Source: a virus
Taxonomy: Duplodnaviria > Heunggongvirae > Uroviricota > Caudoviricetes
Reading direction: 5' to 3' (one strand)
IMG/VR virus record: IMGVR_UViG_2877948078_000002
Length of the DNA: 46,331 bases
The notes beneath the pieces were generated by a model. That model saw only the letters and a list, made by a program, of their open reading frames with translations, made no database searches and was not told the DNA's origin. Below are positions 4,770 to 43,025 of this stretch, piece by piece; the first letter of the stretch is position 1; each line of letters opens with the position of its first letter. A program made the translations under genes and the position numbers.

Positions 4770-4827
4770 AAAAACGGCGGCAGAGCAGTCACGGAGTAAA
4801 ACTGATACCGCCAAACGTCACCAGAAA
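4770..4827 (-). ncRNA. dicF: DicF small RNA (ftsZ-targeting sRNA) with intrinsic terminator
   Basis: Reverse complement of 4775..4827 reads TTTCTGGTGACGTTTGGCGGTATCAGTTTTACTCCGTGACTGCTCTGCCGCC followed by a T-run, matching the recalled 53-nt DicF; sits between ydfA-side ORFs and dicB as in Qin. Confidence 0.8.
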
Positions 4828-8617: not shown

Positions 8618-8866
8618 CGAGATTAAAGTGCATTAGTTAAGATGTAAATTGACATTTTCATGGCATAGGGTAGAGGTAGCGTGGTTGTCTGCTTTGTGCC
8701 ATGAACTGATGTCGCTTGTGTGCGTGGCAATTAGTGTATAACGGATATCATCAGACTCCAGCAGTAGCATTGCTTGAGCATACTAACATATGAAATCTTT
8801 AGTTAACGTAAGATAAATTAGATTTAGTATTTTTTTGAGTATGAGCTCATAAATAATCAAAAAAAC

Positions 8867-8896
8867 TTGATACGCCATATGACTTTGATTTATTTT
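8867..8896 (+). promoter_or_regulatory. Candidate sigma70 promoter for the P-loop NTPase gene (TTGATA, 18 nt spacer, TATTTT)
   Basis: Hexamers at 8867..8872 and 8891..8896 within a roughly 300-bp very AT-rich intergenic region; by inspection only. Confidence 0.3.
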
Positions 8897-8934
8897 GGAA
8901 AAACATAAAGGTAATGTAATGTAAAGAGGAAAAT

Positions 8935-10422
8935 GTGGACATTAGAGACTGGCTACCAGAATTTCAAGTTTCAGCAGAAACAGATCGGGACTTACAGACC
9001 TATTTTTTTAAGCTACCGGCGATAAAGGATATTATTGAAAGTAGGGCTTGGTTGGTTCTTGGAAGAAAAGGTACTGGTAAAACAGCCATTTATGAACACC
9101 TTAGAAGAGGAAAACCAGCCAATCTCAACGGGTTTTACTCAGTATGTCTAAATTTTAGTGACTATCCATGGCCAGCCCATCAACTTTACAAGGATGCAAT
9201 GGCTGGAGAACTTTCCGCTTATCAAAAAAGTTGGATGTATCTTTTTTATATTAAGGCATTATCTAAACTTATTGAAATAAAAAATGATGCTGGAGAGACT
9301 TTAAACAAAGATCTAACGTGGGCACATAATTATATCAAAACTATCTTTGGTAGTCCCGACCCAACTCTTAGGGAGGTTTTGTTTTCAAAAATAACTAGAT
9401 TAAAAACCATAAAAGGGCCCAGTGCTGGTCTTAATGAAGTATCATTGGACGCAGGTGAAATTTCGTTAGAGGAAGTTGCTGAGAATGCTCAGCTAAAGCA
9501 AAAGCTAAGAGCTAATGCTTTCACATTGCTTACGTATTTTGAAAAAATTTTTAAAGATAACATTGGTAATGAAAAAATAATTATCGCCCTTGACCAATTA
9601 GACGAAAACTGGCTAGAGGGGCAAATTGAAGAATATAGTAAGGTTTTAATAAATCTGCTAAATGTCTGTAGAAACATAGCATCTGATGAACGCCTCAATG
9701 ATAAATTAAAAGTCATTCCCTTCCTACGAACGGATATTTATCATTCTTTGAAATTCAATGATAAAAACAAATTATTGCAAGATAGTGCTATCATAATCTC
9801 ATGGAATGAAAATAATCTAAACGATATGTATTATGAGAGGATAAAGAAATACAAACCTAATGATCTCATATTAGATGACGAAAAGGACAGATCTGGGAAA
9901 GTATTTGAGGTTTCATTCGTTAGGCAGGGGACTCCTCCATTTAAATATATATGTCGCCGTTCTTTCTTTAGGCCTAGGGATATTATTGTCTACTTCAACA
10001 AAATTAGGGCATGTCATAAAAATAATGTCTCAGGTCTTTACACTTCCAATGAGCTTTATGAAGCTGACCGTGAAGCATCTATAAGTGTGTACAATGAGGT
10101 GATTGATGAATGGTCCAACCAATTCCCTGAAATTGAGAACTTACTAACTGTTCTTCAAACTATCCAAGTAGAAACATTCGATTTTAATGATTTCTCCGAG
10201 AAGTGCCGTAATGAATTTGCAGGTATTTCTGATGGGGTGATACGTCAATATATCAACTTCCTGTTTGATAACTCACTTATCGGACAAAAAAAACAAGGTA
10301 GATGGGAATACGTAAGTAGTTTGCCTAACTTAAAAATTAATCTACAAAATGAGTTTAGGACACATCATGCTTTAAAATACAGGTTGCATTTAATAGAAAG
10401 CAGACCGAGCCAAAATATTTAG
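8935..10422 (+). CDS. Uncharacterized P-loop NTPase (495 aa): Walker A GRKGTGKT at residues 43-50, Walker B-like IIIALDQLDE at 215-224, uncharacterized C-terminal half of about 270 aa; candidate defence or exclusion gene
   Basis: GTG start with AAGAGGA Shine-Dalgarno; gene and upstream region visibly AT-rich compared with flanking phage genes (estimate by eye, roughly 35-40% versus about 50% G+C); occupies the slot that holds relBE next to hokD in K-12 Qin as recalled. Confidence 0.85.
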   Translation: MDIRDWLPEFQVSAETDRDLQTYFFKLPAIKDIIESRAWLVLGRKGTGKTAIYEHLRRGKPANLNGFYSVCLNFSDYPWPAHQLYKDAMAGELSAYQKSWMYLFYIKALSKLIEIKNDAGETLNKDLTWAHNYIKTIFGSPDPTLREVLFSKITRLKTIKGPSAGLNEVSLDAGEISLEEVAENAQLKQKLRANAFTLLTYFEKIFKDNIGNEKIIIALDQLDENWLEGQIEEYSKVLINLLNVCRNIASDERLNDKLKVIPFLRTDIYHSLKFNDKNKLLQDSAIIISWNENNLNDMYYERIKKYKPNDLILDDEKDRSGKVFEVSFVRQGTPPFKYICRRSFFRPRDIIVYFNKIRACHKNNVSGLYTSNELYEADREASISVYNEVIDEWSNQFPEIENLLTVLQTIQVETFDFNDFSEKCRNEFAGISDGVIRQYINFLFDNSLIGQKKQGRWEYVSSLPNLKINLQNEFRTHHALKYRLHLIESRPSQNI

Positions 10423-10439
10423 CTTACATCCATCTCCAT

Positions 10440-10694
10440 TAAGAAATCTTGCTATTGTTCTTATGGATCGTCTTTCTGACTGATTTCATATTGGCGAGGT
10501 AAAGGTAGTTAAGTAGAATGGCTGCGGGTGCTTGAGGCTATCTGCCTCGGGCATGAACACCAAAGGCAGATAGAGAAAAGCCCCAGTTAACATTACGCGT
10601 CCTGCAAGACGCTTAACATTAATCTGAGGCCAATTTCATGCTAGACACATGTAGGTTAGCCTCTTACGTGCCGAAAGGCAAGGAGAAGCAGTCT
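10440..10694. promoter_or_regulatory. hok mRNA leader / putative sok antisense RNA region with stable stem-loops
   Basis: Perfect 10-bp inverted repeat CTATCTGCCT…AGGCAGATAG (10538-10547 / 10564-10573), a second hairpin GCGTC…GACGC and direct repeats TTAACATTA around 10586..10625; in-frame upstream extension of hok (mok-like reading frame). Confidence 0.45.
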
Positions 10695-10850
10695 ATGAAG
10701 CAGCAAAAGGCGATGTTAATCGCCCTGATCGTCATCTGTTTAACCGTCATAGTGACGGCACTGGTAACGAGGAAAGACCTCTGCGAGGTACGAATCCGAA
10801 CCGGCCAGACGGAGGTCGCTGTCTTCACAGCTTACGAACCTGAGGAGTAA
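10695..10850 (+). CDS. hokD: Hok-family type I toxin (HokD/RelF-like, 51 aa)
   Basis: MKQQKAMLIALIVICLTVIVTALVTRKDLCEVRIRTGQTEVAVFTAYEPEE matches HokD/RelF as recalled; single transmembrane helix; AGGAG Shine-Dalgarno 9 nt upstream. Confidence 0.85.
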   Translation: MKQQKAMLIALIVICLTVIVTALVTRKDLCEVRIRTGQTEVAVFTAYEPEE

Positions 10851-10918
10851 GAGACCCGGCGAGGGAGAAATCCCTCGCCACCTCTGATGTGTCAGGCATC
10901 CTCAACGCACCCGCACTT

Positions 10919-10945
10919 AACCCGCTTCGGCGGGTTTTTGTTTTT
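10919..10945 (+). terminator. Intrinsic terminator at the hok mRNA 3' end
   Basis: GC stem CCCGC-TTCG-GCGGG followed by TTTTTGTTTTT; preceded by a second hairpin (CGGCGAGGGAGAAATCCCTCGCC). Confidence 0.6.
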
Positions 10946-11066
10946 ATTTTCAACGCGTTTGAAGTTCTGGACGGTGCCGGAATAGAATCAAAAATACTTA
11001 AGTAGCGCGCAGGGATAAGAGGGATGGTCCCTTAAAGGGGAGAGCTAATTATCCGGAAGGATTCTG

Positions 11067-11318
11067 ATGATGAACATCGAAGAACTGCGTAAAATTTTTT
11101 GTGAAGATGGCCTCTATGCTGTGTGCGTTGAAAATGGAAATCTTGTTAGTCATTACCGCATTATGTGTTTGCAAAAGAATGGGGCTGCGTTAATTAATTT
11201 TGTGGATGGTCGAGTGACAGACAGATTTATCTTGCGCGAAGGTGAGTTTGTCACTTCATTACAGGCACTGAAAGAGATCGGAATAAAAGCAGGCTTTTCA
11301 GCTTTTGCAGAAGAATAA
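11067..11318 (+). CDS. Hypothetical small protein (83 aa); same length and position as K-12 Rem
   Basis: 83-aa ORF between hok and ydfU; assignment to rem is by position and length only. Confidence 0.5.
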   Translation: MMNIEELRKIFCEDGLYAVCVENGNLVSHYRIMCLQKNGAALINFVDGRVTDRFILREGEFVTSLQALKEIGIKAGFSAFAEE

Positions 11319-14114: not shown

Positions 14115-14414
14115 AAAAATTCCTTAATACTGATAACTTGGCGCACTATACACACGTTCCTGAAGAAAGCTATAGTTTTTTGATGGGGTTGAAGATGGCT
14201 GGATGTCTAAAATAAACATTGCTTCATATGTTCAACTATGCGTTAATGATTGCGTCGGTTTGAAGAACAGACGATATACGAAGTAGTTTACTAAAGCAGT
14301 TCTCATTTCAGGTGTTATTCACTTATTCCTTCTTTGAGTCTCTCCAATTAAGTACGAAGTCGTTTCTGTTATGCAAACCATTTATGCCGAAAGGCTCAAG
14401 TTAAGGAATGTAGA

Positions 14415-14630
14415 ATGTCAAATAAAATGACTGGTTTAGTAAAATGGTTTAACGCTGATAAAGGTTTCGGCTTTATTTCTCCTGTTGATGGTAGTAAAGA
14501 TGTGTTTGTGCATTTTTCTGCGATTCAGAATGATAATTATCGAACCTTATTTGAAGGTCAAAAGGTTACCTTCTCTATAGAGAGTGGTGCTAAAGGTCCT
14601 GCAGCAGCAAATGTCATCATTACTGATTAA
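14415..14630 (+). CDS. cspB: Cold-shock protein CspB
   Basis: 71-aa product [71 protein letters not shown] with RNP1/RNP2 motifs; long 5' leader upstream. Confidence 0.9.
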
Positions 14631-14911
14631 AATTCATCGCTCGTCTGTATACGATAACGAAGAAGGCTGATGCCTGAGTAGAGATACGGACAGAGTAGTG
14701 AATATTGGATTTCTTTAATAAAAATTAAGGAGGTCCAATACATGAAACAATGGCCAGCATATTTGGCAAAATCTTAATCAGGAAAAGTATGCTAACCATT
14801 GTGGTGAAGTGCAGGTTTGCTGCATGAATAGTTTTACAGCAGAAGCTAACTGCTGGCATGGCAAAACAAAGTGCGTAAGTGGATGACTCCCACAAAAAGC
14901 ACCACAATCTC

Positions 14912-16939: not shown

Positions 16940-17302
16940 GGTAATATTAAATCGGAACATTTACATCGCGGAATGTAAAATTTAAATAAAAAGGACTCTT
17001 CCATGAGCCAAAATTCCTGAAATCTTAAGGGTAAGATAAAAGGTCTTAATCAGAATGACACGTTATTATTAATAAATAAAGCTATTCTTTCATTGCTGTG
17101 TTTTTCTTTACAAAAGTAATCCTTGCTATGGGTGGTTAATCATGCGTTAATGGTGTTCTGGTTTGTTACAAATTTATCTGAAGCAGTCATTGTTATAATT
17201 TTATTATTTGTACCTCTTGAGATTTCCTTGTTGGTTTTTCTCTCTGATATTTTTTTTCGGACCATTCTGCCCAAGGGCTAATTTCTTCAAAAGGTAATAA
17301 TT

Positions 17303-17515
17303 ATGTCTAACAAAATGACTGGTTTAGTGAAATGGTTTAACCCTGAAAAAGGTTTTGGTTTCATCACGCCGAAAGATGGCAGCAAAGATGTGTTTGTCCA
17401 TTTCTCAGCAATTCAGAGCAACGATTTCAAAACATTAACTGAGAATCAGGAAGTTGAATTTGGTATTGAGAACGGACCTAAAGGTCCTGCCGCTGTTCAT
17501 GTAGTGGCGCTTTGA
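17303..17515 (+). CDS. cspI: Cold-shock protein CspI
   Basis: 70-aa product [70 protein letters not shown]; long AT-rich 5' leader. Confidence 0.9.
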
Positions 17516-17719
17516 GGTAGACAATATTACAAACCATATTCACTTTAGATGCCCGTGTTGTCATGGTTCCCAGTATAGAACATCATCTTTTGATGTTTCT
17601 GACATGAATCCTTTCGGGGCAAAATGTATCTTTTGTAAATCAATGATGATTACATTTGATAATATTTCACAATACTTAAATGCCAGCCGTCTGTCGTTGG
17701 ATTTAAAAAAGTGAAAATG

Positions 17720-42450: not shown

Positions 42451-43025
42451 TGGCATTCAGAATGAGTGAACAACCACGGACCATAAAAATTTATAATCTG
42501 CTGGCCGGAACTAATGAATTTATTGGTGAAGGTGATGCATATATTCCGCCTCATACAGGTCTGCCAGCAAACAGTACCGATATTGCACCGCCAGATATTC
42601 CGGCTGGCTTCGTGGCTGTTTTCAACAGTGATGAGTCATCGTGGCATCTCGTTGAAGATCATCGGGGTAAAACGGTTTATGACGTGGCTTCCGGCGACGC
42701 GTTATTTATTTCTGAACTCGGTCCGTTACCGGAAAATGTTACCTGGTTATCGCCGGAAGGGGAGTTTCAGAAGTGGAACGGCACAGCCTGGGTGAAGGAT
42801 ACGGAAGCAGAAAAACTGTTCCGGATCCGGGAGGCGGAAGAAACAAAAAACAACCTGATGCAGGTAGCCAGTGAGCATATTGCGCCGCTTCAGGATGCTG
42901 CAGATCTGGAAATTGCAACGGAGGAAGAAATCTCGTTGCTGGAAGCATGGAAAAAGTATCGGGTATTGCTGAACCGTGTTGATACGTCAACTGCACAGGA
43001 TATTGAATGGCCAGCACTGCCGTAG
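42450..43025 (+). CDS. tfa: Tail fibre assembly protein (Tfa)
   Basis: 191-aa ORF immediately after stf (TAATG overlap); size and position of lambdoid Tfa. Confidence 0.85.

Follow-up and report, generated by a model that had tools for sequence, protein, structure and literature searches.

Plasmid R1's hok/sok locus (parB) is plasmid-borne and has a proven function in post-segregational killing, and the names given to the elements of its messenger RNA (mRNA), tac, ucb, dcb and fbi, are used here as they were defined for R1 in PMC9841398. A second described system is hokW-mokW-sokW, which is found in the Stx2 phage 933W and in Sakai prophage 5 (Sp5). The study by Takada et al. determined experimentally that hokW-sokW is a Sok-controlled toxin system that relies partly on RNase III and Hfq, becomes derepressed when mitomycin C is given, promotes phage release and aids lysis once the prophage is induced; a complementary 71-nt sokW RNA was described in the same study (Takada et al. 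2021, PMC8621323). A third relative is hokD (relF) of the Qin prophage of Escherichia coli K-12. The locus examined here is a hok/sok-type locus in the viral record IMGVR_UViG_2877948078_000002, a stretch of 46,331 nt (the window) to which all positions refer. The interval under study was the 511 bp from 10440 to 10950.

The sequence from 10491 to 10945 is very probably a type I toxin-antitoxin cassette of the hok/mok/sok kind, complete and self-contained, that carries a hokD allele and resides in a Qin-like lambdoid prophage, where a variable cargo gene lies on its left and rem-ydfU-ydfT on its right. The cassette extends from the hok promoter at about 10491 to the terminator ending at 10945, and every part of the plasmid R1 paradigm is present. 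The first-pass annotation had assigned the locus to the hok/sok type from the letters alone, and the tests of the protein, the RNA family, the architecture and the synteny all agree with that assignment. As a discovery the locus has little weight, as this was the correct recognition of a known and catalogued element: hokD is a textbook gene, its intact form is common in E. coli, and this exact locus has already been listed for strain NRG857c. The window does provide a view of K-12 hokD before relBE displaced the leader, and it is a natural intact template for the activity of HokD-type prophage cassettes.

The HokD protein, the leader RNA and the limits of the cassette

Hok toxins are proteins of about 50 residues with a Hok/Gef domain, which consists of an N-terminal transmembrane helix and a conserved cysteine, and the 51-residue product of the hok open reading frame (ORF) fits this description. 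It is 100% identical to K-12 HokD/RelF, the identity that had been proposed in the first-pass annotation, and it matches the Pfam profile HOK_GEF (PF01848) from position 1 to 42 of 42 with 82.9 bits against a cut-off of 22 (E 1.2e-23). The Hok-family and HokA models of NCBIfam gave weaker matches that lie under their curated cut-offs. A scan of the whole window against Rfam, a search that had been suggested for the leader, returned a full-length match to RF01794 ('sok antitoxin'; model positions 1-157 of 157) at 10526..10697 on the plus strand, which scored 116.3 bits where the gathering score is 59 (E 6e-26). The consensus of this family opens with GGGUGCUUGAGGC and closes with the hok AUG, and RF01794 therefore represents the hok leader in the mRNA sense; Sok is antisense to part of this leader region.

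The limits of the cassette were determined by comparison with 82 relatives, including 80 viral contigs that encode an identical HokD, and the breakpoints were taken from BLAST since insertions or deletions of 1-2 nt mislead an ungapped walk. Homology to the window begins at 10447-10526 in all but 3 of the 80 viral contigs, and for many phage copies the left edge lies at 10490-10514. On the right side, 28 of the 82 compared loci lose homology exactly at 10945 and most of the others a few nucleotides before it, within the terminator (10932-10952); the terminator is also where homology ends in most of those contigs in which it does not continue into rem. Because the edges of homology coincide with the promoter and the terminator, the unit of inheritance runs from promoter to terminator, which is expected of an autonomous module. 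The span of 10440-10950 that was first given thus contains a real locus and has to be narrowed: the conserved cassette starts at about 10491 (10447 in some relatives) and ends at 10945. Within the leftmost segment, 10440-10490, no more than about 18 of the 82 relatives share the part from 10447 on, and none shares the remainder.

The 511-bp interval is 100% identical in E. coli MRE162 and 99.8% identical in NRG857c, and the RefSeq name for the identical DNA is hokD. Of 5426 complete E. coli genomes, 4728 contain a match to this interval, and for 3848 of these the match spans 80% or more of its length; the number of matching places per genome has a median of 2 and a maximum of 10. The gene order in MRE162, within a Qin-like prophage adjoining rspB, is a DUF977 gene, a P-loop ATPase gene (Sll1717 family), hokD, rem, ydfU, ydfT, cspF and cspB; the order in K-12 is the same, except that relB-relE stand ahead of hokD. 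The locus at the matching coordinates of NRG857c has been described as 'Hok-4, homologous to hokD' and is placed among the seemingly intact loci that are free of insertion sequences (IS) (PMC7232551).

Other Rfam matches above the gathering score were found in the window at 4775-4826 (-), 14254-14646 (+), 17157-17542 (+) and 42793-42991 (+), and these correspond to the DicF small RNA, two cspA-type thermoregulator leaders, and IS009. MRE162 has cspB and cspI at positions roughly corresponding to Rfam matches, which fits a Qin-like prophage. Just past the hok terminator there is a promoter-like sequence, TTGAAG-18-TAGAAT at 10959-10988, which lies upstream of rem (11067..11318) in a stretch that is nearly identical in K-12.

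Elements and predicted folds of the hok mRNA and the antisense RNA

The features of the cassette are collected in Table 1. The hok promoter ends 7 nt before 10526, and the predicted transcript start, G10526, is the position where the RF01794 match begins. The terminator (10919..10936 plus the T-run) is the only terminator-like site that a terminator scan finds in the region; together with the 9-bp hairpin that precedes it, it accounts for the paired 3' hairpins and terminator of the first-pass annotation.

Table 1. Features of the hokD cassette, with window positions and the basis of each assignment (SD, Shine-Dalgarno; UTR, untranslated region)
Feature	Position	Strand	Basis and remarks
hok promoter: -35 TTGGCG (10491-10496), 17-nt spacer, -10 TAGAAT (10514-10519)	10491..10519	+	Consensus scan; sigma-70-like
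Putative full-length hok (mok-hok) mRNA, ~420 nt	10526..10945	+	Rfam start and terminator; ends predicted
tac element, 5' end, GGGUGCUUGAGG	10526..10537	+	Folds; predicted to pair with fbi in full-length RNA and with ucb after 3' trimming
Leader hairpin, 10-bp perfect inverted repeat 10538-10547 / 10564-10573	10538..10573	+	Fold; same stem in Rfam structure
Candidate Sok antisense RNA, 71 nt	10576..10646	-	Position for position the annotated sokW of phage 933W; transcription presumed
ucb / anti-SD box AGCCCC	10578..10583	+	Predicted to hide the mok SD in full-length RNA and to be captured by tac in trimmed RNA
mok SD GAGG, 8 nt ahead of mok ATG	10626..10629	+	Sequence; pairs with ucb in full-length fold
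mok ORF of 70 codons, same frame and stop as hok	10638..10850	+	ORF list
Candidate Sok promoter: -35 TTGCCT (10681 to 10676), 17-nt spacer, -10 TAACCT (10658 to 10653)	10653..10681	-	Read by hand from the sequence
dcb box GCCUC	10659..10663	+	Folds ending at 10890 or 10880; pairs with mok SD region (10626-10630) in trimmed RNA
hok SD GGAG, 9 nt ahead of hok ATG	10682..10685	+	Sequence; paired in full-length fold
hokD coding sequence, 51 aa, membrane-depolarising toxin	10695..10850	+	Pfam HOK_GEF, K-12 identity, RefSeq name hokD on identical DNA
3'-UTR hairpin, 9 bp	10858..10879	+	Fold
fbi element, CCUCAACGCACCC, which complements tac but for one bulged base	10900..10912	+	Folds
hok mRNA intrinsic terminator: 7-bp GC-rich stem, TTCG loop, T-run (stem-loop 10919-10936, T-run to 10945)	10919..10945	+	Terminator scan

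Folding of the region, which had also been suggested, gave a stable prediction that contains the helices expected of a hok mRNA. The 420-nt transcript has a minimum free energy (MFE) of -176 kcal/mol (z = -7.3), and none of 100 shuffled sequences folds as well. The 10-bp perfect inverted repeat that had been noted at 10538..10573 forms a helix in this fold. The long-range 5'-3' pairing that locks the full-length hok mRNA appears as a tac-fbi clamp, in which 10526-10537 and 10900-10912 form 12 pairs. The MFE and centroid folds alike contain this clamp, and in them ucb pairs with the mok SD region at 10626-10630. RNAs trimmed to 3' ends at 10905, 10899, 10890 and 10880 were folded as well, and with the 3' end at 10905 or less tac switches its partner to ucb. 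In these predicted folds the mok SD is unpaired when the 3' end lies at 10899 and is paired with dcb when it lies at 10890 or 10880. The predicted switch reproduces the published conversion of closed R1 mRNA into its open form (model in PMC9841398), and by the role assigned in that paper the 10858-10879 hairpin is likely the protective 3' stem-loop of the trimmed mRNA.

The in-frame mok-like extension of hok seen in the first reading is the 70-residue frame listed in Table 1. Its ATG at 10638 lies 8 nt after a GAGG, so that mok has its own SD and its translation would run into the hok start. There are no stop codons or frameshifts in either mok or hok in the window. Conservation was assessed on 64 distinct cassette sequences that are 87-99% identical to the window, and the mok ORF reaches or crosses the hok ATG in every one of these 64 variants: 56 have mok in the frame of hok, and the other 8 have a mok of 19 codons whose end lies 4 nt beyond that ATG.

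A cis-antisense Sok gene, opposite the mok start and with a promoter and a terminator hairpin, can be recognized at the sequence level. The candidate RNA has a single-stranded 5' tail of 16 nt that is complementary to the mok start region and covers the mok AUG, followed by a long terminator hairpin and UUUU, and its predicted fold has a free energy of -30.3 kcal/mol (z = -5.3). The candidate promoter predicts a start at G10646. The annotation of 933W (Plunkett 1999) includes hokW, mokW and a 71-nt sokW misc_RNA, and by a simple offset this sokW falls on 10646 to 10576 of the minus strand, with its start at exactly the predicted position. Two other placements were rejected. A minus-strand promoter suggested by a consensus scan, TTAACA-18-TAGACT at 10719..10690, has a -10 box that requires the G-to-T change at 10691 that occurs in only 2 of the 64 variants; the RNA would also gain 20 nt at its 5' end, and the sokW annotation and the R1-type locus both point to 10681..10653. 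A 38-nt hairpin from 10663 to 10626, modelled on R1, was set aside as folding puts the terminator-like hairpin at 10631 to 10581, followed by UUUU.

Relationship to described hok loci, conservation and activity

The protein and the genomic position of the window gene are those of K-12 hokD, of which it is the orthologue; the two DNAs share 98% identity from 10681 up to and including rem, and the downstream genes (rem, ydfU, ydfT, cspF, cspB) and the chromosomal site adjoining rspB are shared. The two loci differ in that the homology of K-12 hokD to the window, by three-way alignment and BLAST, runs only from 10681 (about 13 nt ahead of the hok ATG) rightwards. K-12 has nothing of what lies left of 10681: there is no hok promoter, no tac or ucb, no mok start, no Sok RNA and no Sok -10 box. 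In K-12, relE ends 71 nt ahead of hokD, and relBE has replaced the leader. The first-pass annotation had been right that relBE, which stands in front of hokD in K-12 Qin, is absent here. A truncation of the K-12 type, with homology starting at 10681, is seen in only 3 of the 80 viral contigs. As K-12 hokD retains no more than the sequence from 10681 on, it is the window that has the intact form, and because all of the regulatory elements are kept, unlike in K-12 hokD, the window copy is predicted to be a regulated and potentially toxic locus rather than a decapitated relic.

The hokW-mokW-sokW locus is about 93% identical to the window in nucleotide sequence from 10498, in the promoter region, to 10922, just ahead of the terminator stem. 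The leader, tac, ucb, dcb and fbi are shared, mok is likewise in frame with 70 codons, the 71-nt Sok gene is co-located, and both cassettes are carried by lambdoid phages or prophages. The 933W locus has a different 3' end, with no homology past about 10922, and it occupies another location in the phage genome with other neighbours. As read from the alignment, the toxins differ at 4 amino acids at the C-terminus. Six of the 7 differences between SokW and the window Sok lie in the 16-nt recognition tail, and cross-neutralisation is therefore uncertain.

For the comparison with R1, an R1-type hok locus was fetched from an IncFII plasmid. The order of the elements is the same, and nearly identical boxes are found in both: GG.GCUUGAGGCU at the 5' end, AGCCCC, GAGGC, AG.UAGCCUCUUAC, GCAAGGAGAAG and GCUUACGAA. 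The R1-type locus also has the 5'-3' clamp in its own predicted full-length fold, where by eye two tac-fbi pairs differ from the window on both sides (G3-C in the window against C3-G, and U4-A against G4-C), and it has a Sok promoter, TTGCGC-17-TATCCT, at the aligned positions. The toxins are only about 44% identical. The R1 mok is in a different frame than hok, whereas mok in the window is in frame. R1 hok/sok is a plasmid-borne system with proven killing; the window copy is prophage-borne.

Among the 64 variants, tac and the Sok -35 box are invariant, fbi is invariant or nearly so, the Sok -10 box is 96% conserved, and the hok coding sequence has a mean column identity of 99.6%. The tac-fbi helix is paired in 100% of cells, though it is nearly invariant. 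At one pair of the leader hairpin (10538..10573) an A-U to G-C double change occurs in 4 sequences, and the 10858-10879 hairpin is paired in 99.5% of cells, with G-U, A-U and G-C alternating at one pair. Overall, 95.5% of cells are paired and 7 pairs show double changes. In the mok region, alleles pair in different registers and cannot be scored on one alignment, so each allele was folded separately, which is more informative: the GAGGC..GCCUC (SD-dcb) hairpin has a free energy of about -12 kcal/mol in nearly all of the 17 sequence alleles (range -8.4 to -14.3).

One stretch, 10631-10652, which contains the Sok tail and the mok start, is hypervariable, with a mean column identity of 0.785 against at least 0.957 elsewhere and 0.907 in the terminator. 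There are 12 Sok-tail alleles among the 64 variants, all of which encode an identical toxin. Sok-tail types include those of the window, of 933W and of CATATCTATG. It is conceivable, and in our view somewhat doubtful, that this stretch is under diversifying selection so that cassettes of co-resident prophages avoid cross-neutralisation, which would amount to an 'immunity type' system at the RNA level. The basis for this suggestion is the number of alleles, the low column identity, the retention of the hairpin at about -12 kcal/mol, and the multiple copies per E. coli genome (median 2, up to 10).

Two single positions were also noted. The window has a G-to-T change at 10691, 4 nt ahead of the hok ATG, that is common to 1 of the 63 other variants (L020) and creates a TAGACT hexamer on the minus strand. 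A TACG motif at 10833-10836 (+), at Tyr47 of hokD, lies in a predicted loop (CUUACGAAC), is invariant in the 64 variants, and is also present in the R1-type hok. The motif corresponds to the site of the adenosine-to-inosine editing of hokD by TadA (Tyr to Cys) that was reported in PMC5630033.

The homology to hok/sok of plasmid R1 and to the phage locus hokW-sokW allows the following mechanism to be proposed. The hok promoter would give rise to a stable mRNA of about 420 nt in which tac is clamped to fbi and ucb hides the mok ribosome-binding site, so that the full-length RNA would be neither translated nor bound by Sok. Slow trimming of the 3' end would remove fbi, allowing tac to capture ucb and the mok ribosome-binding site to open. 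The unstable 71-nt Sok, for as long as it is made, would pair through its 5' tail with the mok start region and block the translation of mok and the coupled translation of hok, and the duplex would be cleaved by RNase III. If the supply of Sok stopped, the 51-residue Hok would be made and would depolarise the inner membrane. The supply might stop on loss of the element, on shut-off of host transcription by an infecting phage, or on DNA damage and prophage induction as with hokW. HokD has been listed among previously characterised toxic controls (bioRxiv 10.1101/2025.08.07.668861).

Several observations weigh against an active cassette of this kind. The transcript starts, the 3' processing and Sok itself are read here from the sequence and the predicted folds. 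The Sok -10 box, TAACCT, agrees with the consensus at 3 of 6 positions and was missed by the promoter scan. Covariation within the family is weak and most helices never vary; the weak signal is due to the 64 variants being too alike (87-99% identity). The host prophage resembles the cryptic Qin element. Finally, intact chromosomal hokA, hokB and hokC gave no post-segregational killing or activation by rifampicin, as summarised in bioRxiv 10.1101/2025.08.07.668861, so that an intact architecture is no guarantee of a killing phenotype.

The last two of these points, together with the cryptic annotation of the K-12 counterpart, the reports that K-12 hok loci are non-functional, and the near-private G-to-T change at 10691, would be accounted for if the locus were an inert relic, as is believed of the K-12 chromosomal hok genes, with a recognisable architecture from which toxin is never produced or derepressed. 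We consider this unlikely, as every element is present and pairs as expected in the predicted folds, mok and hok are free of stop codons and frameshifts, and the 93%-identical hokW-sokW is functional. Moreover, the invariance or near-invariance of tac, fbi and the Sok -35 box in the 64 variants and the identity of the protein in 80 loci imply purifying selection, and the inactivation of hok by IS elements at sister loci suggests a cost of the intact gene. Among six near-identical loci from viral contigs in which hok adjoins the ATPase gene, hok is disrupted by an IS in two (L096 and L089), and these disruptions fit a hok copy that is costly when intact. In L096 (4761-6300), homology stops at the hok ATG and is followed by an ORF for a 446-residue transposase. 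In L089 (4845-5060), the hok coding sequence is broken after about codon 28, and a sequence resembling an IS3-type terminus (TGATCCTACCCACG...) lies at the break.

The reading of the locus as an intact, regulated cassette says nothing of whom it serves. The main role of the cassette may be to help the prophage in lysis or to stabilise it, as was proposed for hokW-sokW, rather than to give the host a means of abortive infection; this concerns the role of the locus and not its identity. It was determined that deletion of hokW-sokW halves phage release and that HokW is made after mitomycin C in a RecA-dependent manner (PMC8621323), and many lambdoid phages and prophages carry the cassette at the same place. 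On the other hand, the K-12 counterpart of the Qin-like element is cryptic, so a role in the timing of lysis may be moot, and R1 hok/sok has been implicated in phage defence through T4 exclusion, in a study cited in PMC8621323. The sequence itself favours neither role, and we regard a mainly prophage-serving function as plausible while leaning against it.

The neighbouring ATPase gene and the variable upstream slot

The hok locus lies directly downstream of a nucleoside triphosphatase gene, as the first-pass annotation had observed. This gene (8935..10422) encodes a P-loop ATPase of 495 residues on the same strand as hok, and its stop at 10422 is 68 nt before the hok -35 box. The protein belongs to the Sll1717 family by NCBIfam (E 3.8e-74), which is the only source that names the family; a Pfam scan of the window ATPase gave no match. 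Its assignment to a known defence gene was considered and dropped, since PADLOC gave only a marginal match (PDC-M28C, E 4e-5) and Pfam none.

The arrangement raises the question of whether hok/sok and the ATPase form one two-gene defence module in which the ATPase is the sensor and Hok the membrane effector. The two genes are adjacent and on the same strand with the short spacing given above, the ATPase gene always adjoins hokD in those E. coli genomes that appear in both match lists, and at one locus (L030) a distantly related KAP-like NTPase (28% identity) is found 61 nt upstream of the same cassette. A module of this kind is nevertheless highly improbable. The ATPase gene is found in 43 of the 5426 E. 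coli genomes as against 4728 with a match to the cassette, and because all 43 copies are at least 99% identical it appears to be one recent acquisition. The 80 viral contigs with an identical HokD all lack it, and at least 27 different neighbours occupy the slot there. The relatives of the ATPase that were compared, three from viral contigs at 89-92% amino acid identity and three from non-enteric bacteria at 63-70% (Methylophaga, a Bathymodiolus symbiont and a metagenome-assembled genome of Bdellovibrionaceae), have no hok within 3 kb, and the homology among ATPase relatives is confined to the ORF and stops at its borders. A conserved co-occurrence of the ATPase and Hok across lineages was thus not found in these genomes, viral loci and six relatives. 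The ATPase gene has 30-37% GC along its length, as against 50% for hok, and hok has its own promoter and terminator. Cooperation between the two is not supported, and the ATPase is best described as unrelated, rare, low-GC cargo in a hypervariable slot and not as a partner of hok. This settles the question of the neighbour, which should be studied as independent cargo. The ATPase gene looks like a self-contained single-gene unit that moves horizontally, and it is possibly a defence gene.

Besides the identity of the cassette, the comparison exposed two side leads, the hypervariable Sok tails described above and a defence-gene hotspot directly upstream of the cassette. As a weaker corollary, the cassette can be viewed as the constant flank of such a hotspot in lambdoid prophages. 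The slot directly upstream (8640-10490 in the window; loci L004-L083) holds at least 27 different neighbour genes among the 80 viral contigs with HokD. These include genes for KwaB, a PD-Lambda-2_C/Beta protein, a PD-T4-6-type Ser/Thr kinase, PDC-S15 (FRG), PDC-S39 (DUF4209) and a KAP-like NTPase. The commonest neighbour is a DUF551 phage protein, which is found in 33 of the 80 contigs; in K-12 the slot holds relBE, and in the window it holds the Sll1717-family ATPase.

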